Part shown: positions 1 to 44,412 of the stretch, one piece after another | Numbering within the stretch: the stretch's first letter is position 1 | Layout of the letters: each line of letters begins with the position of its first letter | DNA from: a bacterium | GTDB lineage: Bacteria > Patescibacteriota > Doudnabacteria > UBA920 > VMFF01 | NCBI GenBank assembly: GCA_021811585.1 | Contig: JAJZOG010000007.1 | Location: 1 to 55,458 of the forward strand | Length of the DNA: 55,458 bases | Direction: 5' to 3' | Notes under the pieces: generated by a model | What the model saw: only the letters and a program-made list of their open reading frames with translations | Databases searched by the model: none | What the model was told of the DNA's origin: nothing | Position numbers and translations under genes: made by a program

Positions 1-40
1 TGTCTGGAGCGGCTGTTGGTGGTTCGCTGGCGTCCGCAAG
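1..40 (+). repeat. DGR variable repeat (VR), 3' part only; the rest lies left of the window
   Basis: 1-40 aligns to TR 449-488. There are 5 mismatches, all at TR adenines (451, 457, 460, 462, 463). The last 24 nt (16-39 vs 464-487) are identical. Confidence 0.75.
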
Positions 41-52
41 GTTTCCGAGTAG
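2..52 (+). CDS. C-terminal end of the DGR target protein (5'-truncated by the window edge)
   Basis: Frame 2 reads VWSGCWWFAGVRKVSE-stop (TAG 50-52). WWFAGVR matches the in-frame TR translation ...NWWFAGVRN. The tracked ORF 16..333 is in a different frame and is probably spurious. Confidence 0.6.
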   Translation, partial: VWSGCWWFAGVRKVSE

Positions 53-105
53 CACCTGGAAACCTGGAATTCTGGTTCCTCTGGGATCTGGATTCCAAAA
101 ACTTT

Positions 106-147
106 GGAGCTCTGCAACAAACACTTCGGTGTGCGTTGCGGAGCTCC
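106..147 (+). terminator. GC-rich stem-loop downstream of the VR/target gene: intrinsic terminator and/or DGR-associated hairpin
   Basis: ggagctctgcaacaaacac-ttcg-gtgtgcgttgcggagctcc is a near-perfect stem with a UUCG loop, followed by tttcatttt. Confidence 0.4.
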
Positions 148-371
148 TTTCATTTTGCTAAAATTTGTAACAGATGGATCGGAATCTGTGGGTACGCTTG
201 CAGATTGTCTGTCTCGCATTACCGAAGCGGTCAGAATATTTTTTGGCATAAGCTCAAAATAGCGTATTGCTTGGTAAAAAGGTTTCAAGGAAACTTGGTA
301 CGAGTTGCCGGAGGATTTAAATATCCCGGCTAAAATACAGCTTGAAGAGTATTCAACGAGCAGTGCAATAG

Positions 372-488
372 ATGACAATTCGTACGGACTACCTCACGTT
401 CAACAGGTGGAACGACAAGCGCAACGTGAACTGCAACCGCAACGACAATGACTGGAACGACAATTGGTGGTTCGCTGGCGTCCGCAAC
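372..488 (+). repeat. DGR template repeat (TR); 5' boundary approximate
   Basis: The 3' end is identical to the VR. In frame it reads MTIRTDYLTFNRWNDKRNVNCNRNDNDWNDNWWFAGVRN with 7 AAC and 2 AAT codons, the adenine-rich Asn codons typical of a TR. It lies directly upstream of avd and the RT. Confidence 0.75.
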
Positions 489-498
489 TATCCTTGAA

Positions 499-771
499 TT
501 ATTTAGTCAGCTGCTTTTGCCAGCTGCCAATAAGTTTGCCGACTTCTGCCAGTAGCGCGGAAATCTCGGCAAACTTTTTGTTATCTATTGCTTTCAGTTC
601 CCAGGTCAATTGCAGGAAGAATTTCAATATGTCCAGTTTTAGGCTTGCTTTTTTGACAACAGTAAGCTTATTTTCTCTCGAAATATAGCTTGCTGTTAGA
701 ATCAATTCAATTAACTCGGTAAGCAACACGCTAATTTTCTCGCCCAAGGAATATCTATCCAGACGAGGCAT
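499..771 (-). CDS. avd: DGR accessory variability determinant (Avd-like four-helix-bundle protein); true N-terminus probably upstream of the ATG at 771
   Basis: ...RLDRYSLGEKISVLLTELIELILTASY...KLDILKFFLQLTWELKAI...LLAEVGKLIGSWQKQ follows the Avd / 23S-IVS four-helix-bundle pattern. The frame stays open upstream to 885 and encodes LPLLQKLTAAYKLWHKTLPD (helix 1), but has no ATG/GTG/TTG there. Confidence 0.75.
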   Translation of the reverse strand: MPRLDRYSLGEKISVLLTELIELILTASYISRENKLTVVKKASLKLDILKFFLQLTWELKAIDNKKFAEISALLAEVGKLIGSWQKQLTK

Positions 772-848
772 ATCAGGAAGTGTTTTATGCCAGAGCTTAT
801 AAGCCGCTGTGAGTTTTTGTAACAGGGGAAGGTCAGTTGGTGCGTTTA

Positions 849-869
849 CTCTCTCTCTCTCTCTCTCTC
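849..869. repeat. (CT)10 dinucleotide microsatellite between avd and the RT
   Basis: ctctctctctctctctctctc is read directly from the sequence. Confidence 0.95.
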
Positions 870-887
870 GTTTTGTTCCGAAATTTT

Positions 888-1898
888 ATGAAAAGGCAAC
901 TTATCCATAGTTTTGAAGAAATTATTAGTTTAGAAAATTTATTTTCCGCTTGGCAGGAATTTTACCGTGGCAAGTCATCAAAAAAAGATGTCCAGCTTTT
1001 TGTTGCCAATCTTATTGATAACATTGTAGCGCTTCATGAAGATCTTGCCAATAAAACTTATAGGCACGGCGGCTATGAGCAGTTTGGGATATCGGATCCA
1101 AAGCCACGACAAATTCATAAGGCACAGGTTCGGGACAGGGTTTTACACCACGCGATTTATCGGATTTTGTATCCGGCGTTTGATACGGTTTTTATAGCCG
1201 ATTCTTTTTCCTGCCGAACAAACAAAGGCACGCATAAGGCGATGGATCGGTTCCAAGCCTTGGCTTACAAGGTTAGTAAAAACCATACTAGGACTTGCTG
1301 GGTCTTGAAATGCGATATAAAAAAGTTTTTTGCAAGCATAGACCATGAAGTTCTGATTGGAATTTTAAAAGAACGGATTGCGGACAAAAATATAATCTGG
1401 CTGCTGCAAAATGTTGTAGGTAGTTTTTCAATAGGCAAGCCTGGCACAGGGTTGCCGCTCGGGAACCTGACATCCCAGCTTTTCTGCAATGTTTACATGA
1501 ATGAGTTTGACCAGTTCGTTAAACAAAAACTCAAAGCCAAACATTATGTCAGATACGCTGACGATTTTGTGTTCCTGTCTGAAAATCAGGAATGGCTCAA
1601 TGGGCAGATTCCAAGGATTCAAGAATTTTTGGAGCGGAAGCTAAAGTTAAGATTGCATCCTGATAAAATTTATATCAAATCTTTTGCCGCAGGCGTAGAT
1701 TTTTTGGGATGGATCCATTTTCCAAAATACAGGCGACTGCGCACGGTTACAAAGAAGCGGATGTTTAAGAGAATAAAGGAATCGCCCAAACCCGAAACTC
1801 TTCAATCATATTTGGGTGTGCTAAGCCATGGGGATAGCTATGGCCTAGCAGAGGAGGTTATAAGCGATTATTGGCTTTTTTCGAAAAAAAGTTTTTGA
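888..1898 (+). CDS. DGR-type reverse transcriptase
   Basis: Tracked ORF 837..1898; first ATG at 888 (MKRQLIHSFEEIISLENLF). Motifs: CDIKKFFASIDH, LPLGNLTSQLFCNVYMNEFD ([I/L]GxxxSQ signature of DGR RTs) and the YADDFVF catalytic box. Confidence 0.9.
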   Translation: MKRQLIHSFEEIISLENLFSAWQEFYRGKSSKKDVQLFVANLIDNIVALHEDLANKTYRHGGYEQFGISDPKPRQIHKAQVRDRVLHHAIYRILYPAFDTVFIADSFSCRTNKGTHKAMDRFQALAYKVSKNHTRTCWVLKCDIKKFFASIDHEVLIGILKERIADKNIIWLLQNVVGSFSIGKPGTGLPLGNLTSQLFCNVYMNEFDQFVKQKLKAKHYVRYADDFVFLSENQEWLNGQIPRIQEFLERKLKLRLHPDKIYIKSFAAGVDFLGWIHFPKYRRLRTVTKKRMFKRIKESPKPETLQSYLGVLSHGDSYGLAEEVISDYWLFSKKSF

Positions 1899-2383
1899 TC
1901 TACTGATCGGCCAACATGAAATGTTAATTTTGGCATGGTGCCGTTTCGTAACCAGTAGATTCCAGCGGCAATTATGCGATGATTGCCATCCTGCACATAA
2001 TAACTCCCTGCATCTGGTTCGCCATTGACCTTTTCTCTTAGAATAATAGTACCTTGTTCCATTGAGGAGATGTCTTCTTCGAGTTGATTCAATAATTTTT
2101 CGATGTAATTTTTATTACGTCCAGATTCCCACTGGCCTAGTAATTGTTGGTTAGCAGCGTCGGCAATATTTTTTAACAGGCGGCCCTGTTTAATTAGAGC
2201 TTTTGATTCATTACAGTCGACTGTCACTAAATTTGTAAAATCATTCTCTGATAATTCTTGGGCTAAATTCCAGATAGCGCAGCAATCTATAACTCGGAGG
2301 TTTTCATCGTTACTATTAGGGGTAACGCCCTTTCGTCTTTCCCGGCTAATATAAAAGTCTTTGACTATTTGTTTGTTATCCAT
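1868..2383 (-). CDS. Hypothetical protein with a ParB/sulfiredoxin-like motif
   Basis: C-terminal SYYVQDGNHRIIAAG resembles the DGxHR motif of ParB-like nuclease domains. It is the last gene of the minus-strand operon and overlaps the RT 3' end by 31 nt. Confidence 0.45.
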   Translation of the reverse strand: MDNKQIVKDFYISRERRKGVTPNSNDENLRVIDCCAIWNLAQELSENDFTNLVTVDCNESKALIKQGRLLKNIADAANQQLLGQWESGRNKNYIEKLLNQLEEDISSMEQGTIILREKVNGEPDAGSYYVQDGNHRIIAAGIYWLRNGTMPKLTFHVGRSVDQKLFFEKSQ

Positions 2384-2432
2384 TTTTCTTTTTATCCAAA
2401 TAAATTTTCTTATCCTTCAAAATAACCTTGCT

Positions 2433-3716
2433 TTATAAAAATTGTAGCATCTTTCTTTGTTCGTCCGGATCATCGGCATCACGGAACAAAGCCTTGGCAA
2501 ATCTGCGCAAGTCAATTGCTTTTTTCTCTAGCGTCCGATCAATTACAGGTTCGCCAGTAACAAAACTATGGAAGTCATACCATTTTTCAATTTCAGCATC
2601 AAGCTCGGCGCGCATCCCAAGCAAGTCTAAATCCACATCATCAATCATATCCGCAAGCTGGCTGATCAGGTCTTGTTCGTTTATATATGGCTGCCTGCAC
2701 TTCCAGTTTTTGCCGTGGCTGCAGCCGTAATATCTGTATATAGCAATCTCGCCAGTGCTAAGTTTTTTAAATTTTTCTTGGGCTGTGACCCCGGAACCGC
2801 AATCGCCGCATTTCATAAAATGCAGGAAATTAAACTGCTTAGTCAGCTTGTATTTTTTCTTGAATGTATGCTGATTAAGTTGATCCTGGACCAAGTCAAA
2901 TAATTCTTTGGTAATAATCGGCGTATGTTGGCCTTTGTACCATTTGCCGCTTTTTCTGGGATATTCAAAGTAGCCATAATAGAAAGGTCTTCGAAGTACA
3001 AGCTGGACAGTGCTCAGTGCAATTTTATTATCAAATTTTGTTTGAAATCCGGTATCTCTGAGCCAGAATAAAATATCATAGATGCTGCATTTTTCGTATG
3101 CCACCTTTTCAAACATCTTTTTGATCACCGGCGCCCTATCTGGGTCTATTTCTACTTGGCATGCTTTATCTTTTAAGTTTGAATTCAAATACCCAAGCGG
3201 AGCAACCCCGGGCCATAAGCCCATTTCAACCCTTGCCCTCATGCCGCGCTGGACGTTGACCCCGCGATTATCATTTTCGAGCTTTGCTTGGCTGCCCAAG
3301 ATCATTAAAAGAAATTTATCATTAGGGGAGTTGGTGAATATCTGGTTATAGGTCCTGATTTCTACCAGATGCCGGCTATCCATTAAATCAACAAGCCTGC
3401 CTAAATCACCGGCGTTGCGGCTTAGTCGATCTGGATTCCAGGTTAAGATAGCATTATATTTTCCAGCTTTTAGGTCTTCAACTATTTCGTTGAATACTTT
3501 TCTCTGCCCGGAATCTTTTGCTGAATGGGATTCGGTTTTCTTAGCAACGATTTTTAGGTTTTCACGCTCCGCAATGCCCAGCATCTCTTTGAGCTGGGAA
3601 TCAATTGACAATGCCTGGCGCTCCTCGGCCTCCATGGATTTTCTGGCGTAAAGGCAGTAGGTGAGTTGATGTGATTGTTCCTTGCTTTTTTGTTTCATTT
3701 CAAATTGTTGGACCAT
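2433..3716 (-). CDS. Large serine recombinase (phage-integrase type)
   Basis: It has an N-terminal resolvase/invertase domain (YCLYARKSMEAEERQALSIDSQ... with catalytic Ser), a recombinase domain and a Cys-rich zinc ribbon (CGDCGSG...YYGCSH). The C-terminal tail looks like a coiled coil. Confidence 0.9.
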   Translation of the reverse strand: MVQQFEMKQKSKEQSHQLTYCLYARKSMEAEERQALSIDSQLKEMLGIAERENLKIVAKKTESHSAKDSGQRKVFNEIVEDLKAGKYNAILTWNPDRLSRNAGDLGRLVDLMDSRHLVEIRTYNQIFTNSPNDKFLLMILGSQAKLENDNRGVNVQRGMRARVEMGLWPGVAPLGYLNSNLKDKACQVEIDPDRAPVIKKMFEKVAYEKCSIYDILFWLRDTGFQTKFDNKIALSTVQLVLRRPFYYGYFEYPRKSGKWYKGQHTPIITKELFDLVQDQLNQHTFKKKYKLTKQFNFLHFMKCGDCGSGVTAQEKFKKLSTGEIAIYRYYGCSHGKNWKCRQPYINEQDLISQLADMIDDVDLDLLGMRAELDAEIEKWYDFHSFVTGEPVIDRTLEKKAIDLRRFAKALFRDADDPDEQRKMLQFL

Positions 3717-4228
3717 TCAACTATCAATAAAGAACTTGCTGGTACCCCACAAGCTAAAGCTCCTTCAATAAATCTTATTTGAGGTTTGGTCAGGCGATCT
3801 TTGCCTTTATTTTTTGCTTCACAAAACAGCACGGTATTATCTTTCCAAGCCAATACATCAAAACAAGCTGTTGTTTTAGAGATTTTCCAAATTCTTTGTA
3901 ATAAGGATTGTTTATTTTCAGGAATTGATACATTATTTGATCTCAATTTCCATTCAGTAGGCATCTCTTTGAGAAAATTCGTGCCACCATATGTCTCAAC
4001 CCAGATTGACTGCCAACCGGCGTCGATCAGTATTCTGGATATTGCTAGTTCTGCAAAAACTGGTTTATTTTTATAGTCGATAATGGGTTTATTACCGTAA
4101 TCAAAAGTGGGTTTTGGCCCGGTCCATAGCTTGAAAGTCGGGTGGCAAATTGGCAAAGCCGTCATTATTCCCGAATTTAACTTTACTGAAAATTCTCCGT
4201 CAGATTTTAGCTTTTTTGGTAAATCCAT
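3695..4228 (-). CDS. VRR-NUC / PD-(D/E)xK-fold nuclease-like protein
   Basis: CFDVLAWKDNTVLFCEAKNKGKDRLTKPQIRFIE gives a D...ExK pattern plus the downstream Q, as in VRR-NUC domains. It overlaps the recombinase start by 22 nt. Confidence 0.55.
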   Translation of the reverse strand: MDLPKKLKSDGEFSVKLNSGIMTALPICHPTFKLWTGPKPTFDYGNKPIIDYKNKPVFAELAISRILIDAGWQSIWVETYGGTNFLKEMPTEWKLRSNNVSIPENKQSLLQRIWKISKTTACFDVLAWKDNTVLFCEAKNKGKDRLTKPQIRFIEGALACGVPASSLLIVEWSNNLK

Positions 4229-4240
4229 ATAGGTTTATAT

Positions 4241-4810
4241 TTAGATTAGACCCTCAGATTTTATTAACGATGTAACGCAAAGCGAATACTCTTTTTCTTT
4301 GGAGGATTCTATTAGAATTTGCTCTTTGATAGCATCTTTCTCATCTATTGGTACCAATAAATATAATCTGATGAGGAGTCTAATTTTATCCAATCTCTCA
4401 GTCCTCCTTTCTAATAAGGATGGTCGGTTGAGTTTTACTAAATCCAGGGTTTTTTCTCCCTTGTCATTTGTATTAATAGAAAAAATTATTGAGTTTAGAG
4501 CATGCAAAAATTGTTCAGGATCTTCTTGGTATGGGTTAATAAGTTTTTCGTCATATTGGTCATTTTTGTATTCACGATTGCATTTAGGGCAGGCATATCC
4601 TAGATTATCCCAATCAAATTCTAAATCTGGAAAAGAGGTCTTAGGTTTTATATGCTCAACATCGCCATAATCAATATGCTCAATACGACTCTCGCAATAC
4701 ATACATTTATTAAAGCTTGATTCCTGAAGTGCTTTCTTATTTTCTGGGTGTTTGTAGTTGCTGCGTAGGGCTGTGGGATTGGGGCAGGCCGGCCGTGTCA
4801 ATTTAATCAT
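4241..4810 (-). CDS. HNH endonuclease, TIGR02646/PtuB-like
   Basis: KCMYCESRIEHIDYGDVEHIKPK...WDNLGYACPKCNREYKND is an HNH core. The N-terminal KLTRPACP... and the C-terminal LNRPSLLERR segment resemble the Septu PtuB / retron-associated HNH family. Confidence 0.75.
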   Translation of the reverse strand: MIKLTRPACPNPTALRSNYKHPENKKALQESSFNKCMYCESRIEHIDYGDVEHIKPKTSFPDLEFDWDNLGYACPKCNREYKNDQYDEKLINPYQEDPEQFLHALNSIIFSINTNDKGEKTLDLVKLNRPSLLERRTERLDKIRLLIRLYLLVPIDEKDAIKEQILIESSKEKEYSLCVTSLIKSEGLI

Positions 4811-4971
4811 TGCGGTTTTGTAATTACATTATTAAGAGCATCAGGTAAAAGTCTTTCTAAACCGATGCTTTGTAATTCAGCACGCATATTAGATAACTCT
4901 TCCTTAGTAATTTTTTTTCCTGAATATTTTTCCACCAAATTTTTTAATTTTTCCTCTGCCCAGATCGGCAT
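4807..4971 (-). CDS. Possible 54-aa ORF translationally coupled to the HNH gene (not in the ORF track)
   Basis: MPIWAEEKLKNLVEKYSGKKITKEELSNMRAELQSIGLERLLPDALNNVITKPQ. Its TGA overlaps the HNH ATG (ATGA at 4807-4810). There is no convincing SD. Confidence 0.3.
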   Translation of the reverse strand: MPIWAEEKLKNLVEKYSGKKITKEELSNMRAELQSIGLERLLPDALNNVITKPQ

Positions 4972-4991
4972 CGTAAAGGATACGCCTGGAG

Positions 4992-6038
4992 TTGAACTTG
5001 CGCTTGAACCGCAACACCGGAGAGTTCGACTTCAATCTGCTTAAAGATTTTGGTGAAGATTTTCTGGCAGATATAGGTTTCTCAAGCGAGGAGTTAGATA
5101 GTGCTTTCGGCATAGATGAATCGCCGGAAGTGTTCAATCTTGAAAAAGAATTGCAAAAGCTAGATATTAAAAAAGTGCAGCTGAAAACAGGTGATATGCT
5201 GGATCTTGATGGCAGCAGGCTTTTGGTTGGCGACTCAACCAAAGAAGCAGACATGCTGAAACTGTTTGGCAGCGAGAAAGCAGATATGTGTTTTACAGAT
5301 CCGCCATATTTGCTCGACTACCTGCATGGCAAAAAGAAAAAGCAGTCAACAAAAGGTTTTGGCCTTAAACGCGATAGAACCTATCTTGGCACAGAGTCGC
5401 TGCCTGAGAATTTTACCGACCTTTGGATGGCCAACATAGCCAAAATTCAAAAGCCAGACTTCTCCATAATCGTATACGAAAATCCAAAAAATCTGCGCAC
5501 GATTTGGAATGCGCTCGATAAGCATTGGAAGTACCGTAACACCATAATCTGGCATCTGCCTAACCGGGTGCAGGGGTTTGCTGCTAAGTATAAGTTCTTC
5601 AACAAATATGATTTTTCAATTCTTGGAACTTCTGGAAAGGTATTATTGCATGATGAGCCAGAAAGCAATCCGTTGTTGCAGGAGGAATACGAAGCTGCCT
5701 TGTTTGCCACGTCAGGCAGCCCGACCTGGGAGAAGTATGAAAAGGGTAAAAAATACTGCCCAACTGACTTTATTGAATACAAGGCAAGCGATGCCAAAAG
5801 CTCAGGCCAAGGTATTATCTTTGGAACAAAACCAGTTGAGATCCTAATACCATACATAAAAATTTTGACTAAACGCGGCGACTTGATAGCAGAACCATTT
5901 GGCGGTTCAGGATCCACTTTGATTGCTGCCACCAAGATGCAGCGCAGGTGTTTTGTTATGGAAAAAAGCAATATCTATGCCGAGGTAATCCGAAAGCGCT
6001 GGGAGAAGCTAACCGGCAAGAAAGCGAGACTTATATGA
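4992..6038 (+). CDS. DNA methyltransferase (N6-adenine/N4-cytosine, beta class, PF01555-like)
   Basis: DPPY motif (CFTDPPYLLDY) precedes the SAM motif FGGSGST. The N-terminal linker (GFSSEELDSAF...GDMLDLDGSRLLVGDS) is as in phage ParB-methylase fusions, but without the ParB domain. TTG start is uncertain. Confidence 0.85.
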   Translation: MNLRLNRNTGEFDFNLLKDFGEDFLADIGFSSEELDSAFGIDESPEVFNLEKELQKLDIKKVQLKTGDMLDLDGSRLLVGDSTKEADMLKLFGSEKADMCFTDPPYLLDYLHGKKKKQSTKGFGLKRDRTYLGTESLPENFTDLWMANIAKIQKPDFSIIVYENPKNLRTIWNALDKHWKYRNTIIWHLPNRVQGFAAKYKFFNKYDFSILGTSGKVLLHDEPESNPLLQEEYEAALFATSGSPTWEKYEKGKKYCPTDFIEYKASDAKSSGQGIIFGTKPVEILIPYIKILTKRGDLIAEPFGGSGSTLIAATKMQRRCFVMEKSNIYAEVIRKRWEKLTGKKARLI

Positions 6039-6484
6039 GCGGCAAAAATCTAAAACAGAAACAGCAGAAAACTGCGCTAGTTGAGCAACTTAAAAAAATG
6101 CCGATCATAGAGGTCGCCTGTAAGCGCATGGGTATAAGTAGGGCAGCTTACTATGTTTGGCGAAAGCAAGACATTGAATTTGCCAACATGGCTGATACTG
6201 CGATTCAAGATGGCGTCTTGTATATTAATGACCTTGCAGAATCAGGGTTGCTGTCTCAGATCAAGGACAATGATTTACAAGCAATTAAATTTTGGTTAAT
6301 CCATAGGCACTCAGCGTATGCTGCCAAACTTCAGGTTAACGCCAATCTCAATGCCTTCCAAGAACAATTAAGCCCTGACCAACAAAAAGTGGTAGATGAG
6401 GCGCTGCGTCTGCTATCGCTTAGCGATGGCGAGGAAGTAACAAAAGGAGAAAAAGAAAATGAAACTGACGCCGGAAATAATTAA
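6035..6484 (+). CDS. Terminase small subunit-like HTH protein
   Basis: Start ATG 6035 overlaps the methylase stop (ATGA). MSGKNLKQKQQKT...IIEVACKRMGISRAAYYVWRKQD is an HTH. It sits immediately upstream of, and overlaps, the large terminase. Confidence 0.6.
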   Translation: MSGKNLKQKQQKTALVEQLKKMPIIEVACKRMGISRAAYYVWRKQDIEFANMADTAIQDGVLYINDLAESGLLSQIKDNDLQAIKFWLIHRHSAYAAKLQVNANLNAFQEQLSPDQQKVVDEALRLLSLSDGEEVTKGEKENETDAGNN

Positions 6485-8024
6485 GCGCATGCACAATGAC
6501 CGCGATATTAGGAGAGCTATTACCAAGCGCAGCTTTGAAGCCTTTTTCGGCTATTATTTTGGCGATTACCTTGAATATGAAAGTGCCCCATTCCATACCC
6601 AAATGTTTAAGCTTTGTGAGAACGACAATACTAAATTGATTGTAATCAAAGGTTTCCGCGAAAGCGCCAAGTCCACCCTAATGGCTCAAGCCTATCCAAT
6701 TTGGGCGGCTATATCAGGTCGCGCTAAAGAAATAGTGGTAATTAGTAAAACCCAAATGCTTGCCCGCCATTTGCTTAAAAATATCCGCGCTGAACTGGAA
6801 GAAAATAAGTGGCTTATTAATGATTTTCAACCGTATGATTTTATGGAAGATCAGTCGGGTGCTTATGCGGTTACTTTAAAACGCTATCATTCAGAAATTA
6901 TTGCGGTATCGCGCGATCAAGGCATTCGCGGCATTCGACATCGCCAGCATAGGCCAGGTCTAATAGTCATTGACGATGCTGATGATTTGGCAAGCGTTAA
7001 AACTCAAGAATCCAGAGACGATACCTGGAACTGGCTAATGCGCGACATTATTCCTTTAGGCAGCAAGAATACTAAAATGGTAGTGCTTGGTTCGCCACTA
7101 CATGACGACAGCATGATCATGAGACTCAGCAAATCTATTGCTGATGGACTTATGAAAGGTGTGGCTCTTCATATTCCCATAGTTGATGACGCGGGCAAAC
7201 CAACTTGGCCTGCAAAGTTTCCAACCCAAGCAGATATTGAGGAGGCACGCAGTAAAATGGATGAATTAGCTTGGCAAAGGGAAATGATGCTAAAGATAGT
7301 TCCCGAAAATGGACAAATTATCAGCCGTGAGGATATATCTTTTTATGATGAGCAGCCACTTAGGTCAGATTCTAAATCTGAGTTTATTGAACGGATCGGT
7401 TCAATTGATTTTGCTTTAAAAGACAAGCAATCTGCTGATTTTACAGCAATGGTTGAAGGAGATATTTATGGATATGACCAAGAACGAGTTATATATATTC
7501 AGCCAAATCCGTTAAACAAAAGATTGGAGTCACACCAGGCGCTAAACGAAGCGGTCCTGCGTTCCAATCCGCCAGGATCTAAATATCCAAACAAGCTTGT
7601 TGTTGAAGACGTTGGCGCCTCAATAGTTTTTATTGACCTGCTAAAGCAAAGCCATATTCCAGTTCAAAGTTTCCAGCTTAAAAGCCAAGATAAACGAGAG
7701 CGATTTTCCATAGCCGCAAGCTGGATTAAAACCGGCAGAGTAAAACTGCCGCGTCATGGCTGCGAGCGGCTCATTGAACAAATAGTAGGCTTTGGAACAG
7801 AGCGTTTCGATGACCTTTTGGACGCGCTTGTTCAACTGATCATTTATGTCATGGAAAATAATGGCGGAAAAATGGGAGGAATAGTGTCAATAGATTTAGG
7901 AATTGATTATAACCTTGAAGGCGGACTGCTTCCTGCCAATTATAGGCCACCACATCTTTTGCCACTTAGACGAAGCACGAATATAAATAACATCTTGGGT
8001 AAAAGCAGATATCTTAGAGACTAA
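6459..8024 (+). CDS. Phage terminase large subunit
   Basis: Walker A-like GFRESAKST and Walker B LIVIDDADD. The C-terminal RNaseH-like nuclease part has IDFALKDKQSADFTAMV, VEDVG and FDDLLDALV. SD aaaggag lies upstream. Confidence 0.85.
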   Translation: MKLTPEIIKRMHNDRDIRRAITKRSFEAFFGYYFGDYLEYESAPFHTQMFKLCENDNTKLIVIKGFRESAKSTLMAQAYPIWAAISGRAKEIVVISKTQMLARHLLKNIRAELEENKWLINDFQPYDFMEDQSGAYAVTLKRYHSEIIAVSRDQGIRGIRHRQHRPGLIVIDDADDLASVKTQESRDDTWNWLMRDIIPLGSKNTKMVVLGSPLHDDSMIMRLSKSIADGLMKGVALHIPIVDDAGKPTWPAKFPTQADIEEARSKMDELAWQREMMLKIVPENGQIISREDISFYDEQPLRSDSKSEFIERIGSIDFALKDKQSADFTAMVEGDIYGYDQERVIYIQPNPLNKRLESHQALNEAVLRSNPPGSKYPNKLVVEDVGASIVFIDLLKQSHIPVQSFQLKSQDKRERFSIAASWIKTGRVKLPRHGCERLIEQIVGFGTERFDDLLDALVQLIIYVMENNGGKMGGIVSIDLGIDYNLEGGLLPANYRPPHLLPLRRSTNINNILGKSRYLRD

Positions 8025-8048
8025 AAAATAATACCGGCTTTGCCGGTA

Positions 8049-8432
8049 TTATTCGCGTTCAATCCTAACTATAACCAAGTATCCGTTATGGTAGTTTTCA
8101 TCATATCCACGAATCATTCTCCACACAGTGTTGGTTAAATTTGATTGGTATTTTTTGAATTCAGCCTTAAACGCTTTTTTGTATTTCCCATAAAGTTCAT
8201 CAGGAAAAACCACTTGTATTGTTGGGAAATCTTTTTCATCTTTTCCCCAATCAACCATTTTTAGAATATTGGCTTTGGGACAAGCAGCAGAAATACGCTG
8301 TGAAATTTCTTTGATAAATCTATCAATTTCAAAGCGGTTATATGCCTTAGGAGAATCCATATCCTTAATATTAAAAAATAAAGCAGGGATATTTACAGGG
8401 AGAATACCTTTATGTTTGCGGGTTTCTTGCAT
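8049..8432 (-). CDS. Hypothetical protein
   Basis: 127-aa ORF. On its strand TATAAT (8444-8439) lies 6 nt upstream of the ATG, so the transcript may be leaderless. Confidence 0.55.
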   Translation of the reverse strand: MQETRKHKGILPVNIPALFFNIKDMDSPKAYNRFEIDRFIKEISQRISAACPKANILKMVDWGKDEKDFPTIQVVFPDELYGKYKKAFKAEFKKYQSNLTNTVWRMIRGYDENYHNGYLVIVRIERE

Positions 8433-8487
8433 ATTTCAATTATACACCCATCCTGGACTTATGTTAGATGTTGCGGTACTGTCTGCT

Positions 8488-8680
8488 TGGCTAAGACAAG
8501 ACAGTGTAATTAACAAAATCAAAGGGTTTTTGAGCCTACCTAGCTGACATTGAGAAAATTAGACAATTTAACTATAATTACATTAACAACTGAATAAATT
8601 CAGTAGCCTAAACCAGGAGAAATTTTGGCATGGCTAAATCCACAGAAATGCGAAGACGGTCACCTGTCTTGTCTTAGCCA
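8488..8680. repeat. Perfect 17-bp inverted repeat pair (8488-8504 and 8664-8680) bracketing a 159-bp segment
   Basis: tggctaagacaagacag at 8488-8504 is the exact reverse complement of ctgtcttgtcttagcca at 8664-8680. Confidence 0.9.
8550..8578 (+). promoter_or_regulatory. Near-consensus sigma70-type promoter facing the gene at 8767
   Basis: TTGAGA (8550-8555), 17-nt spacer, TATAAT (8573-8578). It lies inside the inverted-repeat-bracketed segment. Confidence 0.6.
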
Positions 8681-8766
8681 TTTCTGTGGTCCCTAGCCGA
8701 AAGGTTAGGTGGGGCAAGCGGGTGGCCCTTTTTGATAACTAAAAACCCCGCGGAAAGAAAAATTGT

Positions 8767-9729
8767 ATGAGCGGTTTATTTGTATTCCTGCTCCTAATAT
8801 CAATAGTGTGTCTGGTGCTGGGACTAATTATGCCAGCTTGGTTTAATAAGGTGTTTAGGGGCAGCGCGTCAAGAAAGAAAATTGCCATAACTTTTATAAG
8901 TGCAATAATAGTTTTCTTCGTACTAATAGGGGTAACATCTCCCAAGACAACTATATCTCAGAAACAAGTAATAGACACCACTTCAAAAACAACCGCTAAT
9001 CAGCAAGTGGCTCAATCAACCCCACAGTCTACTAGCAACTCGGTAGCTACAACGTCAGCAAGTTCGGCCATAATTCCGCAGCCAATAAAAACACCGCCAG
9101 CCTCTATTGTCAAAAATATTCCTACACAAATTACTAAACCTAACACAACAACATCATCCAACACTACTACACCTGTCACACAATCGAGTCAGCCTGCTAC
9201 AACACCAACCCCACAGCCTACGCCGGCTCCACCAGCACCTAAATCACCTGCTACTAGTTTTGGTGATGGAAACTATGTTGTGAGTACTGATATTCAACCT
9301 GGCACTTATAGAACTCGTGTCGGATCACCTGGATGCTACTACGCTCGCTTGAGTGGGTTTAGCGGTTCAATGGACGAGATACTGGCGAACAACAATACTG
9401 ATTTTCCAGCAGTAATTACAATACCGTCTTCCGACAAAGGATTTCAAAGTTCTAGTTGTGGAACTTGGACTCAAGACCTCTCTGAAATTACCAGTAGCCA
9501 GACATCTTTTGGTGATGGCATATTTATTGTAGGAACTGATATGCTGCCAGGTACCTATCGTAGTTCAGGTTCCACAGGTTGTTATTATGCCAGAGTGAGC
9601 GGTTTTAGCGGCACCGATGGTGAAATATTGGCTAATGATAATACCGATACTGCAGCTGTCGTAACCATACTCGCTAGTGATAAGGGATTTGTGTCATCCA
9701 ATTGTGGAACGTGGGTTAAAATTGATTAA
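8767..9729 (+). CDS. Membrane-anchored protein with a Thr/Ser/Pro-rich linker and two tandem ~75-aa Cys-containing domains
   Basis: N-terminal TM helices. The repeats are TSFGDGNYVVSTDIQPGTYRTRVGSPGCYYARLSGFSG...SSCGTWTQ and TSFGDGIFIVGTDMLPGTYRSSGSTGCYYARVSGFSG...SNCGTWVK. Confidence 0.75.
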   Translation: MSGLFVFLLLISIVCLVLGLIMPAWFNKVFRGSASRKKIAITFISAIIVFFVLIGVTSPKTTISQKQVIDTTSKTTANQQVAQSTPQSTSNSVATTSASSAIIPQPIKTPPASIVKNIPTQITKPNTTTSSNTTTPVTQSSQPATTPTPQPTPAPPAPKSPATSFGDGNYVVSTDIQPGTYRTRVGSPGCYYARLSGFSGSMDEILANNNTDFPAVITIPSSDKGFQSSSCGTWTQDLSEITSSQTSFGDGIFIVGTDMLPGTYRSSGSTGCYYARVSGFSGTDGEILANDNTDTAAVVTILASDKGFVSSNCGTWVKID

Positions 9730-9761
9730 AAAATAACTGTAAAAAAGATAGAGCAAAAACT

Positions 9762-10202
9762 ATGAATGAAAACAATACAAGTTTAATACAGAGTATTGGT
9801 AGCAGGGGTAGAAAATTGCTAAAAGAAAATATTGGACAAGACGAAAAAATCTTGATTGAGTTGCAGGGTGCCTTTGGGCAGGTTTTAGTAGTTACAGATA
9901 AACGCTTGTACATTATCAAGTGGGGATTTATGGCTGGCAGCACTTTTGGCGGCAGATGTCTGGCATTTGAATTCAAGAATATAACGGGTGTAAAAATCAC
10001 TAAGAATTTTGTAACCGGCGAATTTGAGATTGTTAGCCCTGGTAATCAGGATAATCAAAAAACTTATTGGGGTATGACTAATCGCACTGATGCTAATAAA
10101 GCTGATAATGTGGTGGTTTTCCGCAGAAAGAGCTTTGGGCCTTTCCAGCAGGCTGCCAACTTGGCTAGGGACTTAATTAATCAAGCACATAGTAAGAGTT
10201 GA
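9762..10202 (+). CDS. Hypothetical protein, possibly a bacterial PH-like domain
   Basis: 146-aa ORF. ILIELQGAFGQVLVVTDKRLYIIKWG...VKITKNFVTGEFEIV resembles YokE/bPH-type domains. Confidence 0.5.
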   Translation: MNENNTSLIQSIGSRGRKLLKENIGQDEKILIELQGAFGQVLVVTDKRLYIIKWGFMAGSTFGGRCLAFEFKNITGVKITKNFVTGEFEIVSPGNQDNQKTYWGMTNRTDANKADNVVVFRRKSFGPFQQAANLARDLINQAHSKS

Positions 10203-10409
10203 TTTGTCAATTTTCTCTGAGTAAAAAGTATTAATTTTTTAGAAGAACACGGCTATCGTCCGTGTCCTTCGCTCCCAATTTAATGTAGACATTTTGAAAA
10301 CTAAACATGTCTCATGTTAGCACTTTTTGAATATTGTATAAGGCTAAAATGAGGAATTTTCAAGGGGTTTTATAGGTCTGGACAGGGCAGGCGGATTGCG
10401 TCATTCATT

Positions 10410-10793
10410 GTGTTACCTGGGGCAAAAGAGCTTCTAGGTAGAAAGGAATATATGAATGAGGTAATGAACGCTGGACTTATGCAGGCTGCTCCTGTGCAGG
10501 GGGTGCATGGGGAGTTGTCTCGTTTGAATTCTGAGTATCCCGGAGAAACGATTCCTTGGAATGGAAATGACGTTTTAACTATTTCGATGCAGGAATATGA
10601 ACGGGCGGTAGAAACTCTTCTGCATTTAAAAGATGTCTTTGCGTTGCCGCAAGACTTGGAACATATACACTGGCAGAGTGTGAATAGAAACTCTTTTTCA
10701 CCAGATTTTGTTACTCGTGTTAATCATACCTTGGTCAATGTTTCAAATCTGGGTCCGTTTTTTTTCCAACCGGGACTCGAACCTGAAAAATAA
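10410..10793 (+). CDS. Hypothetical protein (start uncertain; first ATG at 10452)
   Basis: ORF track only; no recognisable motifs. Confidence 0.4.
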   Translation: MLPGAKELLGRKEYMNEVMNAGLMQAAPVQGVHGELSRLNSEYPGETIPWNGNDVLTISMQEYERAVETLLHLKDVFALPQDLEHIHWQSVNRNSFSPDFVTRVNHTLVNVSNLGPFFFQPGLEPEK

Positions 10794-10923
10794 GGAAAAA
10801 TTCACAAACAGATCCTGAGCAATATAAAATCCACAAACCTAGTTTTGTGGATTTTATATCTGACCTCAATGTTTATGGGTACTTTTGCGTACAGCACCTG
10901 GGTCAGGTTGAACGTGTTGAATT

Positions 10924-10998
10924 TGGCTCGAGAGGTGGGATTCGAACCCACAACCAACCGGTTAACAGCCGGTTGCTCTACCGTTGAGCTACTCTCGA
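10924..10998 (-). tRNA. tRNA-Asn (anticodon GTT), CCA encoded
   Basis: The reverse complement is TCGAGAG-TA-GCTC-AACGGTA-GAGC-A-ACCGG-CTGTTAA-CCGGT-TGGTT-GTGGG-TTCGAAT-CCCAC-CTCTCGA-G-CCA. This is a 75-nt full cloverleaf. Confidence 0.95.
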
Positions 10999-21446: not shown

Positions 21447-22871
21447 TTAAACCGGGTTGCCATACCTCAGTTCGGAAAGAATTTTTATAATTTCAGCGAT
21501 GTTGGCAGTGGTGTTGGCTGCGGTGTCGGCGTTGATGTTGGCAGCGGCACTGGCTGCAGTATCGGCAGCGGTGATGTCGGCTGCAGTGCCGGAGATTTTT
21601 CCCACCGGTTCAGAATTGTTTGCCAATTCAAAATTTTCCGCCCCAGAATCAGCCGCCGGTTCATTTTCAAATTTTTTCGGCGCAAAACCTTTGGCTAAAA
21701 ACGGATCATACGGCGTGCCGTCAATGGTGCAGCGCGCATAAAAATAATGCACCGGAATATTTTGCAAATCATTTTGGTCAATGGGCTTCATCTCCGGCGC
21801 GAGGAATCGCGCGTCTTGCGCGCCAATTTGGAATGTCAGCAGAGTGCCCACATTTCCCATTATGGCGCTGCGCATATTCTCCGGAAGCTGGGCAATGTAT
21901 TGGTTCGTGAGATGCACTGCCAAACCGTATTTGCGCGATTCGGAAAGCATGCTTATGAAAGCGTCGGTGAGCAGATTTTGGAACTCGTCCACATATAAAT
22001 AAAAGGGCAGGCGGTTTTGTTCCGGTAGGGAAGCGCGCTGCATCACAGCTGCTTGCAGTTTTGTCATCAAGATGAGGCCGAGCATGTGCGCGTTTAATTC
22101 GCCGATTTTTCCCTTAGAGAGGTTTACCAGCAGAATTTTTTCGTTGTTGATGATTTCGCCCATGTTAAAAGAGCTTTTTTTCTGGCCGATTATGTTTTTG
22201 ATTACGCCGTTGCTGGCGAAGCGCCCGAATTTGGAAGTGAAATAATTGAGCATTTCGGATTTGTGGAAGTCCGCGGTTTGCGCCATCTGCTTGCCCCAAA
22301 ATTCTTGCACAGTCGGATCGGTGACGAATTTGCGCTTGTGCGCCAGGAAATTTTGGTCCACAAAAAGCGTCGGGATTTCCAGGAGTGTGCCGCCTTCGGG
22401 GTCGGCCATCACTGTGAGGGCGGCGCTGCGCATCCAATGCTCGAACTGCGGGCCGATTATTCCGGTTTGGTTGGGATCAAACAATTTGTAAAAAATTTGG
22501 ATGGCTTCGGAAACCAGGAAATCTTTTTCGTTTTCATCCTTCCATTCCAAAAGGTTCAGGCCAAAAGGCGCTTCGGTCTGCGAAGGATCAAAAAGGATGA
22601 CATCGTCAATGCGGTTTCTTGGAATTTGCCCGAGAATGCGTTCGATTGCTTCGCCGTGCGGATCCACAAAGCAGGCGCCGCGGCCAGCGGCAATGTCCTG
22701 GAGAGCCATATTTTCGTAAAGCGTGGATTTTCCGGTGCCGGTTTTGCCTATCATATAAACATGGCGGAAGCGGTCGTGTTTTTTTATGCCCACGAGGAGA
22801 TTTTGTCCGCGGTAATTCGCGGTGCCGATTTCCACCTCATATATGTGCTGGGTTTTTTGGAGGGAGTTCAT
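21447..22871 (-). CDS. Type IV secretion coupling-protein-like ATPase (VirD4/TraD/TrwB family)
   Basis: Walker A IGKTGTGKST and Walker B-like LYVDEFQN. The overall pattern (FVDPHGE..., SESRKYGLAVHLTNQY) matches T4SS DNA-binding-domain proteins. The C-terminal tail is Ala/Thr/Asn-rich. Confidence 0.75.
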   Translation of the reverse strand: MNSLQKTQHIYEVEIGTANYRGQNLLVGIKKHDRFRHVYMIGKTGTGKSTLYENMALQDIAAGRGACFVDPHGEAIERILGQIPRNRIDDVILFDPSQTEAPFGLNLLEWKDENEKDFLVSEAIQIFYKLFDPNQTGIIGPQFEHWMRSAALTVMADPEGGTLLEIPTLFVDQNFLAHKRKFVTDPTVQEFWGKQMAQTADFHKSEMLNYFTSKFGRFASNGVIKNIIGQKKSSFNMGEIINNEKILLVNLSKGKIGELNAHMLGLILMTKLQAAVMQRASLPEQNRLPFYLYVDEFQNLLTDAFISMLSESRKYGLAVHLTNQYIAQLPENMRSAIMGNVGTLLTFQIGAQDARFLAPEMKPIDQNDLQNIPVHYFYARCTIDGTPYDPFLAKGFAPKKFENEPAADSGAENFELANNSEPVGKISGTAADITAADTAASAAANINADTAANTTANIAEIIKILSELRYGNPV

Positions 22872-23113: not shown

Positions 23114-23294
23114 GGGTCCAACCCAAACCCCCAACCTAACTCCCCAATCTAAGGACACGATTGTGGTGTTTAGGCAAGTGTTTTAATAATATTTTAATTG
23201 AGTTTCCCTTATATATTGCATAAATATCCTTAGATTGGGGGTTTGGATTAGGGGTTTAGGTTGGGGGTTTGGGTTGGGGTATTGGGTTGGACCC
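23114..23294. mobile_element. 181-bp MITE-like palindromic element, copy 1
   Basis: 41-nt C-rich left arm (23114-23154), 73-nt AT-rich core and 67-nt G-tract right arm (23228-23294). It differs from 50997-51177 by a single base. Confidence 0.85.
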
Positions 23295-25374
23295 AAAGTT
23301 CCAACAAAGTTTCGCAGGCATCTTCAATAAAGCGCTTCACGGGCCGCGCGCCAAAACGATAATCCGCAAGCGCCCTGATTTTTTCGCGCAGAATTTCGGG
23401 GTCGATTTTAAATTTAATGCCGTGTTCGTCTCCGGCACGCTCCTCAATTTTTCGAATCTCCGCTCTGGCAATTTCCAAAAGCTCCGCCTCTCCAAGCGGG
23501 TTGAAGACAATTATCGCATCAAAACGGTTCAGGAATTCAAGTTTAAAATTTTGCGTCAAAATCGGCATCATTGTTTTTTTCAAAAATTCCGCGCCGGAAA
23601 CGTTTTCTCCTCGCTCAAAAGCATCCACGAGTTCCGCAATCCCCAAATTGGAAGTGGCGATGATAATCGTATCCGAAAAATTTACCGTCTGTCCTTGGCC
23701 GTCGGTAAGCCGCCCGTCTTCCAAAACTTGTAAAAAAATATCGAAAATTTTTGGATGCGCTTTTTCAATTTCATCAAGCAAGATCAGCGAATATGGCTGG
23801 TTTAAAACAGCGTTGGTAAGCTGTCCTCCGGATTCGAAGCCAATATATCCAGGCGGCGCGCCGATCAGGCGCTGCTGCGCGTGCGCTTCGGAAAATTCGC
23901 TCATGTCAATGCGCACGAAAGCGCGTTCAGATCCGAAGACGCTTTTGGCAAGAACTTTGGAGAGTTCGGTTTTCCCGACACCCGATGGCCCCAAAAACAG
24001 GAACGAACCGTTTGGTCTTCCGGGGTTCCGCAGCCCAATTATGCTCCTGCGCACAACTGCTGCCACGATTTTTGCGGCTTGTTTTTGCCCGATTATATTT
24101 TTATTAAGTATTTCTTCAAGATTAAGTTGTGGATTTGGATCAGCCGCTTGCCGTGTCTCGCGCTCTTTTTTAAGCCCTGCTCCGCGTTGCTTGTTCATTA
24201 CTGTTTCGTGTCCCGCTGTTGATATCCTGCCGTCATACCCCTCTGTGGATATCATGTTGCCGCGTTTCGTAATTACCCCCAAAGGCGCGTTTGTGGAATT
24301 TGAGGATGTCCCCAAAGGAGTATTTGCAAAATTCGCTGCCGGCCCTAAAGGCACGCCGGTTTTTTCGGAATAGATTTCGCGAATTTCTTTTTTGCTGAGC
24401 TCTTTTAATCCCGAAATTTTTGCGAATGCCAGGCATTCATCCAAAAAATGAATGGCGCGAAGTGGAAATTTTTTTTCCGAATTCATTTTAGCCGCAAGTT
24501 CAACGATGCTTTTAAACGCGTCGGTGCGCACGCGCACACCGTACTGTTTTTCAAAAGCAGGGGACAACGCGCGCAGAATTTCTTCGCTTTCTCGGCTGTC
24601 GTGCTGGGCGATGCGAATCTCCTCAAAGTTTTTTAAGAACCCCGGGGTCTCTGCGGCAATGCGCGCATATCCTTTTTCAGTCATCGCCAAAATCAAACTG
24701 ACTTCGTTTTTCTTAAAAAACGGATCCAGCACTTGCGCGGTTTCATAGAGCCGCCCTTCCAGACAAACATTCTCAAAATCATCGATGAAAATAATTGAGC
24801 GTTCGGGAATTTTTTTGAATGCCGCGCTAAGATAATTAAATCCTTCTTGCGTGCCGACTTGCGCGAAAAGTTTTTTGAGGTTGCCGCTATCAAGGCGCGC
24901 AAGAGAGTAATTTTCAAAACCGAAAATCGCATTTTTTGCATTGTTTTCCGTGCCATTTGATTTTCGGTTAGCTGCATCGTTTCCTATGCCGTTCGCTCTT
25001 TTATCTGTTGTGTTTATGGCAGTGCTATTTTTAGTGTTGTTTATGCTGCCATCCACAGTCCCGCTCATTCTTTTGTTTATTGCGTTTGTGGCAGTGCCAT
25101 TCCCGGTGCCGCCATTCCCGGTGCCGCCATTCCCGGTGCCGCCATTCCCGGTGCCGCCATTCCCAGTGCCGCCATCCACAGCGCCGTTTGCCGCGCGATA
25201 AAAGAAGGCCTCCACGAGCGCGGTTTTCCCCGTGCCGCTTTCGCCGCGCACAATTATATTATTGTTGTACTGGCGTTTGAGCGTCCGCGCCATGCGCCTA
25301 AGCTCGGCCTCGCGTGTAATCGCATCGCCAATGCTCTTTCGTTTTGCTTCTTGTTTTAGATCGTAGTAAATCAT
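23248..25374 (-). CDS. Clp/Hsp100-family double-AAA+ ATPase (ClpB/ClpC-like) with large low-complexity inserts
   Basis: D1 has RGESGTGKTALVEAF and IIFIDDFE. D2 has FLFLGPSGVGKTELSKVLA...LIGAPPGYIGFESGGQLT...ILLDEIEKAHPKIFDIFLQVLEDGRLTDGQG. The last ~15 codons and the stop lie inside repeat copy 1. Confidence 0.85.
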   Translation of the reverse strand: MIYYDLKQEAKRKSIGDAITREAELRRMARTLKRQYNNNIIVRGESGTGKTALVEAFFYRAANGAVDGGTGNGGTGNGGTGNGGTGNGGTGNGTATNAINKRMSGTVDGSINNTKNSTAINTTDKRANGIGNDAANRKSNGTENNAKNAIFGFENYSLARLDSGNLKKLFAQVGTQEGFNYLSAAFKKIPERSIIFIDDFENVCLEGRLYETAQVLDPFFKKNEVSLILAMTEKGYARIAAETPGFLKNFEEIRIAQHDSRESEEILRALSPAFEKQYGVRVRTDAFKSIVELAAKMNSEKKFPLRAIHFLDECLAFAKISGLKELSKKEIREIYSEKTGVPLGPAANFANTPLGTSSNSTNAPLGVITKRGNMISTEGYDGRISTAGHETVMNKQRGAGLKKERETRQAADPNPQLNLEEILNKNIIGQKQAAKIVAAVVRRSIIGLRNPGRPNGSFLFLGPSGVGKTELSKVLAKSVFGSERAFVRIDMSEFSEAHAQQRLIGAPPGYIGFESGGQLTNAVLNQPYSLILLDEIEKAHPKIFDIFLQVLEDGRLTDGQGQTVNFSDTIIIATSNLGIAELVDAFERGENVSGAEFLKKTMMPILTQNFKLEFLNRFDAIIVFNPLGEAELLEIARAEIRKIEERAGDEHGIKFKIDPEILREKIRALADYRFGARPVKRFIEDACETLLELWVQPNTPTQTPNLNP
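25096..25170. repeat. 15-bp tandem repeat x5 inside the Clp-like gene (encodes GGTGN x5)
   Basis: gccattcccggtgcc x4 plus gccattcccagtgcc. Confidence 0.95.
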
Positions 25375-44021: not shown

Positions 44022-44412
44022 GGGGATGCCGGATTTTGACAGGGATTTGAACTTTGAAAATATGCAAGCCGGGTATTCTCGGAATCCCGTAACATATTCG
44101 AGAAAATCACAAATGCCAATTTAATGGCTCGGGTAAAAAATGCTTTTGCTAATGCATTTGCATTTCAACCTGCTCTTGCTTAATTAGCGGGAGCGCGCGC
44201 CTTTTGCTTTTCCGCGGCAAAAGTTTACGCGCTGTTATTGCGGAATATGCGCAGCGCGGCTGGTTTGCCCGCGCGCGTGAAATCTTTGCAAACCGCCCTT
44301 TTGGCTTAACTCGCTTGCTGGTTGCCAAAAGGATTTAAAGCAAGCTAAGCTTGTGATCAATTTTTAGAGCGATATCTCCTGGACGCGGGTTTAACTCCCG
44401 CCATCTCCACCA
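44022..44412 (+). ncRNA. ssrA: tmRNA (SsrA)
   Basis: The 5' end is GGGGATGCCGGATTTTGACAGGG. The 3' end is GGACGCGGGTTTAACTCCCGCCATCTCCACCA, a tRNA-like T-arm and acceptor with a G3:U pair. The in-frame tag candidate is GCC AAT ... CCT GCT CTT GCT TAA (44115-44183) = ANLMARVKNAFANAFAFQPALA-stop. Confidence 0.9.

Follow-up and report, generated by a model that had tools for sequence, protein, structure and literature searches.

What kind of element lies at the left end of contig JAJZOG010000007.1, and in what state is it kept there? The contig belongs to a bacterium of the Patescibacteriota (Doudnabacteria; assembly GCA_021811585.1), and the whole stretch analyzed here, 55,458 nucleotides in length, is referred to as the window. 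A reading made from the letters alone, which we call the sequence-only reading, had placed a diversity-generating retroelement (DGR) at positions 1-1898, with a truncated target gene ending in a variable repeat (VR), a template repeat (TR), an Avd-like open reading frame (ORF), and a reverse transcriptase (RT). Adenine-only differences between VR and TR, an invariant end resembling an initiation of mutagenic homing (IMH) site, a TR rich in AAY codons (AAC or AAT), an Avd homologue, and an RT of the DGR type all bear out this identification. Judged by these features, the element is a DGR of the lineage typical of Patescibacteria (the candidate phyla radiation, CPR), a kind already known. We consider it highly probable that the locus as a whole is best explained as a CPR-lineage DGR working in the manner proposed below, with a weakened avd state and a repeat tract that modulates expression. 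From left to right, its elements are the target gene with its VR, a putative terminator, a promoter, a structured leader, the TR, avd (accessory variability determinant) on the opposite strand, the repeat tract, and the RT gene.

The identification starts from the repeat pair, of which the window holds the following parts.

1-51, plus strand: target gene, 3' end only (the window edge removes the rest), with the visible VR at 1-39 and a TAG stop at 49-51
16-39, plus strand: IMH-like invariant 3' end of the VR, the same as 464-487
389-488, plus strand: TR, of which only 449-487 can be aligned to the VR in the window and whose 5' limit is taken from homology among relatives

An ungapped alignment of positions 1-39 with 449-487 contains five mismatches, at 451, 457, 460, 462, and 463, and each of them falls on an adenine of the 449-487 copy, where the first copy has T, G, G, T, and G, respectively. 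Given eight adenines among the 39 nt, the probability that all five would do so by chance is C(8,5)/C(39,5) = 9.7e-5, and the adenine-specific divergence claimed in the sequence-only reading stands. The same is true of the invariant end, as the 24 nt at 16-39 and 464-487 show no differences, two unchanged adenines included, with divergence immediately after; the similarity of VR and TR stops at position 40/488 (G/C). The TR had also been described as packed with AAC and AAT codons, and in the frame 372-488 these make up 10 of 39 codons, the adenines being distributed over codon positions 1, 2, and 3 as 17, 17, and 1. Frame 2 at the left edge reads ...VWSGCWWFAGVRKVSE before the stop, with the TAG lying 10 nt after the VR ends, and is homologous to the C-terminus of a 214-aa target protein (...WWFAGVRKVSK) in the closest related locus, L002. 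The VR of that locus (its positions 5041-5139) aligns with window positions 389-487, which is the basis for the 5' limit of the TR. No additional copy of the VR is present anywhere in the 55-kb window. An exact-protein look-up of the RT returned a single match, a 10.9-kb Logan contig (L001) that begins at window position 109, and scans of GTDB genomes and JGI metagenomes gave no copy of the window's element, the best matches being 70-74% identical. Among the 120 target matches listed, none ends in ...RKVSE.

The second pillar of the identification is the RT gene.

888-1898, plus strand: DGR reverse transcriptase of 336 aa, with a Pfam RVT_1 match (1.1e-24) and the motifs LGNLTSQ and YADD

Both motifs lie in this ORF, as the sequence-only reading had stated. 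The best solved relative of the enzyme is the 328-aa RT of the Bordetella phage DGR (8ub7_A; E = 1.5e-42, 149 bits), whose IGSLTSQ aligns over the LGNLTSQ of the window's protein, whereas group II intron RTs score about 70 bits and retron/Drt RTs at most 25 bits; these scores place the RT nearer to known DGR RTs than to those of group II introns or retrons. In NCBIfam, a collection without any DGR RT model, the group II RT/maturase model gives 147 bits against a cut-off of 300, and the retron RT models give at most 65 bits against cut-offs of at least 235. An Rfam scan of positions 1-3000 at E ≤ 1 detected no intron or retron RNA, just a chance miRNA match. We found at least 7999 RT homologues at E ≤ 1e-20, and those with an organism name are Patescibacteria; the nearest relatives (58-78% identity) come almost entirely from Patescibacteria metagenome-assembled genomes.

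The arrangement of these parts recurs in a set of related loci, 80 from GTDB genomes and 80 from metagenomes, with RTs 58-74% identical to that of the window. The closest relative overall is L002, whose RT is 78% identical and whose DNA aligns to window positions 17-1831 at 75% nucleotide identity. The same cassette occurs in every one of the 150 related loci for which upstream DNA is available. In the genome set, each of the 80 loci with such DNA has avd next to the RT gene, on its upstream side and in opposite orientation, and in the metagenome set the orientation is likewise opposite in all 67 loci that yielded an avd. A VR/TR pair is present in 110 loci, always in the order VR, a spacer of 330-500 nt, TR, avd in reverse, and RT, with the VR forming the end of a small gene, and over these 110 pairs 1921 of 2063 mismatches (93%) fall at TR adenines. 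Two loci from different samples, L184 and L187, share the same RT protein (70% identical to that of the window). Over 2139 nt they show 17 differences, every one of them in the VR (positions 271-343) and at a TR adenine, which argues for recent diversification activity in the lineage; the avd gene of this relative likewise lacks a canonical start. DGRs of CPR organisms were reportedly first surveyed by Paul et al. in 2017. The arrangement TR-(avd)-RT corresponds to architecture B3 of Wu et al. 2018 (PMC5758913), who report it in 90% of CPR DGRs, and DGR clade 2 has been described as restricted to Patescibacteria and cell-encoded, with targets that have no recognizable domains (Roux et al. 2021, PMC8144416). 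We assign the window's element to B3 and clade 2 on the basis of its nearest relatives and the shared architecture.

The features that bear on the state of the element lie at avd and in the gap between avd and the RT gene, as follows.

499-849, minus strand: avd, with an intact frame and no start codon upstream of the Met at 771-769
849-868, no strand assigned: (CT)10 simple-sequence repeat in the divergent avd-RT gap, 19 nt from the RT ATG
906-908, minus strand: ATG in avd orientation, complementary to RT codon 7 (CAT, His), out of frame in the window

The Avd-like ORF that the sequence-only reading placed after the TR is an Avd homologue, with a Pfam bAvd match over 502-771 (1.4e-13, 51.7 bits, cut-off 40), and the frame read from 849 covers NCBIfam DivGenRetAVD in full (profile positions 1-104 of 104; 70.3 bits). 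Its orientation has to be corrected, because avd is not on the same strand as the other genes of the element: it lies on the minus strand, divergent from the RT gene. Between the upstream stop and the Met at 771 the frame contains no ATG, GTG, or TTG, and its open part is a truncated ORF of 90 aa. The repeat is located between the ATG used in the L001 allele and the body of avd, in the 5' part of the avd frame, and is the only repeat of its kind in the 55-kb window. L001 derives from an independent Logan assembly (SRR13221994). Over window positions 109-10983 (10,875 nt) it shows zero mismatches and one gap of 2 nt, by which it carries (CT)9. When translated in silico, the (CT)9 allele yields an intact avd of 135 aa that starts at the ATG at 906-908, an ATG also found in 100 of 130 relatives, and the (CT)10 allele yields a dead-end ORF of 20 codons with a stop just past the repeat. 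Approximately 11 of the first 80 relatives are also without a canonical avd start. In a separate observation, the (CT)10 tract joins a TTG at 837 to the RT frame, to give MVRLLSLSLSLVLFRNF-MKRQ..., and with (CT)9 this TTG is out of frame (837-890). A change in tract length could therefore alter the N-terminus of the RT in addition to avd; the longer, TTG-initiated version of the RT is not on record in the exact-protein look-up.

Public gene calls for avd in this lineage (loci L165-L189) are often missing or cut short (65-90 aa), since an ATG, GTG, or TTG at the conserved N-terminus is lacking in many copies, and automated DGR surveys may thus undercount Avd in the Patescibacteria lineage. We also noted, within the RT gene on the minus strand (1051-1023), a promoter-like sequence, TTGGCA-17-TACAAT, that points toward avd. 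It recurs with an unchanged offset in 66 of 145 loci, but similar peaks of smaller size appear on the plus strand, so that this candidate avd promoter may be a by-product of codon conservation.

A repeat tract at the avd-RT position is a feature of almost the entire set of relatives, being present in 130 of 136 non-redundant loci (~96%). Read on the RT strand, 119 of these tracts are poly-G of 7-14 nt, with a mode of 10, and the remainder are poly-C or dinucleotide repeats of (AG)/(GA), (GT), or (CT). In the first 80 loci, 75 tracts fall within 230 nt of the RT start, compared with 9 in the other 1.2 Mb. The type of tract varies among close relatives with its position kept, as illustrated by (CT)10 in the window, C8 in L002, and G9 in L005, and this turnover at a fixed position argues for selection on repetitiveness and not on a particular sequence. 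Within groups of contigs that share the same RT, 3 of 7 differ by one tract unit, which is the sole difference outside the VR over 1.2-10.9 kb, each such case resting on single assemblies in which an error is possible; the other 4 of 7 show no variation in tract length. Additional G/C or (AG) tracts were seen 1-3 kb downstream of the RT gene in L054 (~3404 and ~5253) and L016 (~11614 and ~11869). The tract is probably a conserved, hypermutable element of the divergent control region of avd and RT, and we infer that changes in its length would modulate the expression of avd, RT, or both. Its effect on the avd reading frame is clear in the window; for the lineage as a whole, translational, transcriptional, slippage, and DNA-structure models are all possible.

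The region between VR and TR, together with the first nucleotides beyond the TR, contains signals that appear to shape the RNA of the element.

106-147 followed by 148-156, plus strand: GC-rich hairpin (UUCG loop; -30.5 kcal/mol, z -6.6), then a T-run
156-164, plus strand: extended -10 element TGCTAAAAT, with a predicted start of the TR-containing RNA near 171
171-388, plus strand: structured leader RNA of ~210 nt, with a 5' domain at ~169-273 and a 3' domain at 291-386
508-526, plus strand: small stem-loop past the TR, CAGCTGC-TTTT-GC(C)AGCTG, antisense to the 3' end of avd

The hairpin is probably the intrinsic terminator of the target gene; a hairpin and T-run occupy the same position in seven relatives, with unrelated stem sequences. 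The conserved extended -10 element directly follows, which implies a separate promoter for the TR RNA. The pattern TGnTAnAAT is kept in 8 of 8 aligned loci, and TGnTAnnnT occurs 115-150 nt upstream of a CTTGGT anchor in 51 of 77 loci, with a sharply peaked distance; at the level of this consensus, we infer that the RNA would start near 171. The consensus fold of the leader (RNAalifold, eight loci) contains 54 pairs, 39 of them with compensatory changes, and the end of its outer helix coincides with the start of TR/VR homology. A covariance model of the 95-nt 3' domain, R1, when run over 1.27 Mb, recovered 75 loci at the expected place just 5' of the TR and one other site (L014, 16802-16937, minus strand), which is far from the DGR of that locus and possibly marks a second cassette. 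In the resulting alignment 94.8% of cells are paired and 450 cells carry double changes, compared with 125 after shuffling and no more than 126 in controls with slid partners. Fitting the alignment to the model introduces a bias in favor of pairing, which the slid controls carry as well. No Rfam family matches the leader in the scan of 1-3000, and we found no description of a large 5' leader domain in the literature searched.

Downstream of the TR the signals are less uniform. The stem-loop at 508-526 has a weak stem of 6-7 bp (-8 to -9 kcal/mol; z -1.1, not significant) and is a weak candidate for an Avd-binding stem-loop. A GC-rich hairpin with a T-run lies 5-25 nt past the TR in 76 of 104 relatives (for example, L007, L014, and L022) and is missing from the window, L002, and L005; where present, it may serve to terminate the TR RNA or, as a stem-loop, to bind Avd. 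RNAalifold applied to the 170 nt downstream of the TR gave four pairs and no convincing consensus structure. In other DGRs, CPR elements included, a stop duplex and Avd-binding stem-loops were predicted by Handa et al. (bioRxiv 10.1101/2023.10.23.563531), whose survey of these elements was limited to 40 nt on the upstream side and 100 nt on the downstream side of the TR.

The target proteins form a family of at least 1108 members of ~200-215 aa, for which we obtained no Pfam match and no sequence match in the PDB. An AlphaFold model of the L002 target (55 sequences; pLDDT 85.5) has an N-terminal helical part and a C-terminal part of order beta-alpha-alpha-beta-beta-beta-beta, which carries the VR. 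This C-terminal order, as modeled, is compatible with a C-type-lectin fold. A Foldseek search of the model against the PDB and BFVD gave no significant match; the faint lectin-like matches are 3whd_C (E 1.0, probability 0.13) and herpesvirus UL45 (E 1.1).

Taken together, these features suggest how the element would work. An RNA would start near 171 at the conserved extended -10 promoter and hold the folded ~210-nt leader and the TR (~389-488). By analogy with the Bordetella phage, the RT and Avd would copy the TR to cDNA with misincorporation opposite template adenines, and the cDNA would then replace the VR at the end of the ~210-aa target, up to the invariant IMH-like 24 nt, recoding AAY codons; this replacement is seen as a pattern and not as a process. 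In the window, the cassette is probably switched off or weakened, because avd has a single upstream ATG and (CT)10 shifts it out of the reading frame. Slippage in the tract may turn avd on or off or tune the divergent control region of avd and RT, in which case the window would represent an "off" allele and L001 an "on" allele.

Several observations weigh against this account. Only 39 nt of the VR and 16 codons of the target gene lie inside the window, the edge cutting off the rest, and the target gene was not recovered, as no longer contig emerged from the exact-RT look-up or from the GTDB and JGI scans. The Avd score of 70.3 bits is lower than the NCBIfam equivalog cut-off of 80, and the C-type-lectin or FGE-like fold that the sequence-only reading had proposed for the target did not find confirmation in the Foldseek search. 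One-unit differences in assemblies can be errors. Against a simple translational on/off switch, the upstream ATG is in the avd frame in only 21 of 102 relatives, less than the one third expected by chance, and the poly-G variants G10/G11 and G9/G10 do not restore the frame. Moreover, 48 of 130 relatives have a start of their own, mostly TTG, ~5-12 nt past the tract, so that the tract falls in the 5' untranslated region (UTR). With so few ATGs in frame and so many starts past the tract, a simple translational switch for the whole lineage is unsupported. Finally, the window copy may be non-functional, since its avd has no canonical start. Taken further, this last point would make the element a decaying, inactive DGR, with a truly inactivating avd frameshift and adenine-specific differences that are relics. 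The missing start in the window, the start-less relatives, and the frequent truncated or missing avd calls speak for such decay, yet the RT, the TR, and the remaining avd frame are all intact, and the sole lesion is a single repeat unit, for which a (CT)9 allele exists in an otherwise identical contig of 10.9 kb. The relative with 17 VR changes between samples, all of them at TR adenines, is itself one with a start-less avd, and we regard decay as unlikely.

A stronger competitor holds that something other than switching has kept the tract conserved and that its length differences are assembly or sequencing errors; homopurine/homopyrimidine structure, a UTR element of the divergent mRNAs, and a transcriptional slippage site are possible roles. 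The prevalence of homopurine/homopyrimidine tracts (poly-G, poly-C, (GA)n, and (CT)n) accords with this view, as do the starts just past the tract, where a change in length would leave the frame as it is, the rarity of in-frame arrangements, and the four same-RT groups of constant length. Set against these points are the occurrence of (GT)n as well, the change of type between close relatives at a kept position, and the three same-RT groups in which the tract is the only non-VR difference. A dinucleotide repeat of 20 nt is, in addition, an atypical source of Illumina assembly error, which counts against the error part of this explanation. On balance we give a non-switching role with erroneous length differences a substantial chance, somewhat short of even. 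At the other extreme, the RT could belong to a group II intron or retron, with the 39-nt repeat arising by chance or as a remnant of duplication. The best NCBIfam model for the RT is indeed that of group II RT/maturase, and several database sources name its homologues "retron-type" or "group II intron" RTs. The score of this model lies far below its cut-off, however, the retron models fail too, and no group II RT reaches more than half the score of the DGR RT structure. A protein of 336 aa also has no room for maturase or endonuclease domains, and Rfam gives no intron or retron RNA at E ≤ 1 in positions 1-3000. With an adjoining Avd, mismatches at adenines only, and a whole cassette kept in 150 loci, this identity is refuted, and we assign it practically no probability. 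A CPR-lineage DGR with a weakened avd state and an expression-modulating tract remains the explanation that we prefer.

Around the DGR, the GC content is 39-43% over positions 1-11 kb and 45-54% beyond, so that the AT-rich island near terminase and recombinase genes noted in the sequence-only reading is present and both genes are real. The flanking part of the island is as follows.

1868-10998, no strand assigned: lower-GC flanking island, given as context, with DGR membership not implied
1868-2383, minus strand: ORF of unknown function
2433-3716, minus strand: serine recombinase
4241-4810, minus strand: HNH endonuclease
4992-6038, plus strand: N6/N4 DNA methylase
5948-6484, plus strand: small-terminase-like helix-turn-helix protein
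6459-8024, plus strand: large terminase (phrog_38, 4.3e-71)
10924-10998, minus strand: tRNA-Asn, at the right edge of the island

Small ORFs of unknown function are also found in the island, and no portal or capsid gene was recognized in it. The L001 contig breaks inside the tRNA-Asn, at 10983; a duplicated tRNA-Asn fragment, which could mark an att site, is absent from the window. Cellular genes follow from 12.7 kb onward. In L002, the same cassette is located between uvrB and a peptidase gene, with phage genes absent, which suggests that the cassette moves between contexts. As Wu et al. 2018 (PMC5758913) noted, next to nothing was known about links between CPR DGRs and phages, and the tRNA-Asn-bordered island with its terminase, HNH, methylase, and recombinase genes is a rare hint that a CPR DGR may travel with phage-derived DNA. 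Elsewhere in the window we observed a 3853-aa ORF without a Pfam match (28493-40054, plus strand) in the part of highest GC content (up to 54%), and, in ordinary cellular context, a tmRNA gene (44022-44412, plus strand) with the tag ARVKNAFANAFAFQPALA, a type IV secretion coupling-protein-like ATPase (21447-22871, minus strand), and a ClpB-like AAA+ protein (23248-25374, minus strand).

In gene order, orientation, and the AAY-rich TR, the window's element resembles the B3/clade 2 DGRs of CPR bacteria, and its family shares with them a small target of ~210 aa with a C-terminal VR and no recognizable domain; in basic anatomy, we see no differences from CPR DGRs. The literature that we searched on CPR DGRs did not contain a near-universal avd-RT tract, a ~210-nt 5' leader, or a neighborhood of phage genes. 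Compared with most of its CPR relatives, the window's subclade differs in the absence of the hairpin and T-run after the TR. The prototype DGR of Bordetella phage BPP-1 (mtd-avd-TR-brt) shares RT homology (8ub7_A), the Avd family, adenine-specific VR/TR differences, and an invariant IMH-like 3' end, although a direct comparison of the Avd proteins gives only a weak match (Bbp7/4dwl, E 0.27). The avd gene of BPP-1 precedes the TR and runs in the same direction, whereas that of the window is antisense and begins ~10 nt past the TR. The window also has, ~65 nt beyond the VR, a post-target hairpin that is terminator-like. In BPP-1 the enzyme is wrapped by RNA that comes largely from the 140-nt spacer on the 3' side of the TR (Handa et al., bioRxiv 10.1101/2023.10.23.563531), and in the window it is 5' of the TR that the large structured RNA is conserved. 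By this analogy, the leader RNA of the Patescibacteria lineage may take over roles of the 3' spacer RNA of the Bordetella phage.

Simple-sequence contingency loci are known from the poly-G/C tracts of Neisseria and Campylobacter and from the (TA)n repeat in the divergent hifA/hifB promoters of Haemophilus influenzae. As in such loci, the window has a slippage-prone tract in the 5' coding/control region of a divergent gene pair and an apparent one-unit polymorphism between otherwise identical assemblies, here with a consequence for the reading frame. Unlike them, most of the relatives have a tract that does not clearly fall inside a reading frame, with in-frame states rarer than chance would give. 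The function under control would, furthermore, be a mutagenesis system and not a surface antigen. Our searches for literature linking DGRs or avd with homopolymers, simple-sequence repeats, or phase variation returned nothing relevant, with a prior description in Paul et al. 2017 possible. The joint proposal, in which the tract is a contingency switch and the leader takes over the roles of the Bordetella 3' spacer RNA, is a tentative one that we are inclined to doubt.

As a DGR, the element is not new in kind and adds one member to a very large known Patescibacterial lineage, with at least 7999 RT and 1108 target homologues; what deserves follow-up is the avd state of the window, the lineage-wide tract, and the leader RNA. 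If it holds up, the covarying RNA 5' of the TR, together with its conserved promoter, is likely the DGR RNA of the lineage and offers a concrete construct for the in vitro reconstitution of a CPR DGR. The hypermutable tract, at a fixed place in ~96% of cassettes, suggests on/off switching of targeted mutagenesis by slippage; if true, this would bear on how DGR activity is controlled and its cost contained. Were the tract a contingency switch, a mutagenesis system would be switched heritably and reversibly within the population.

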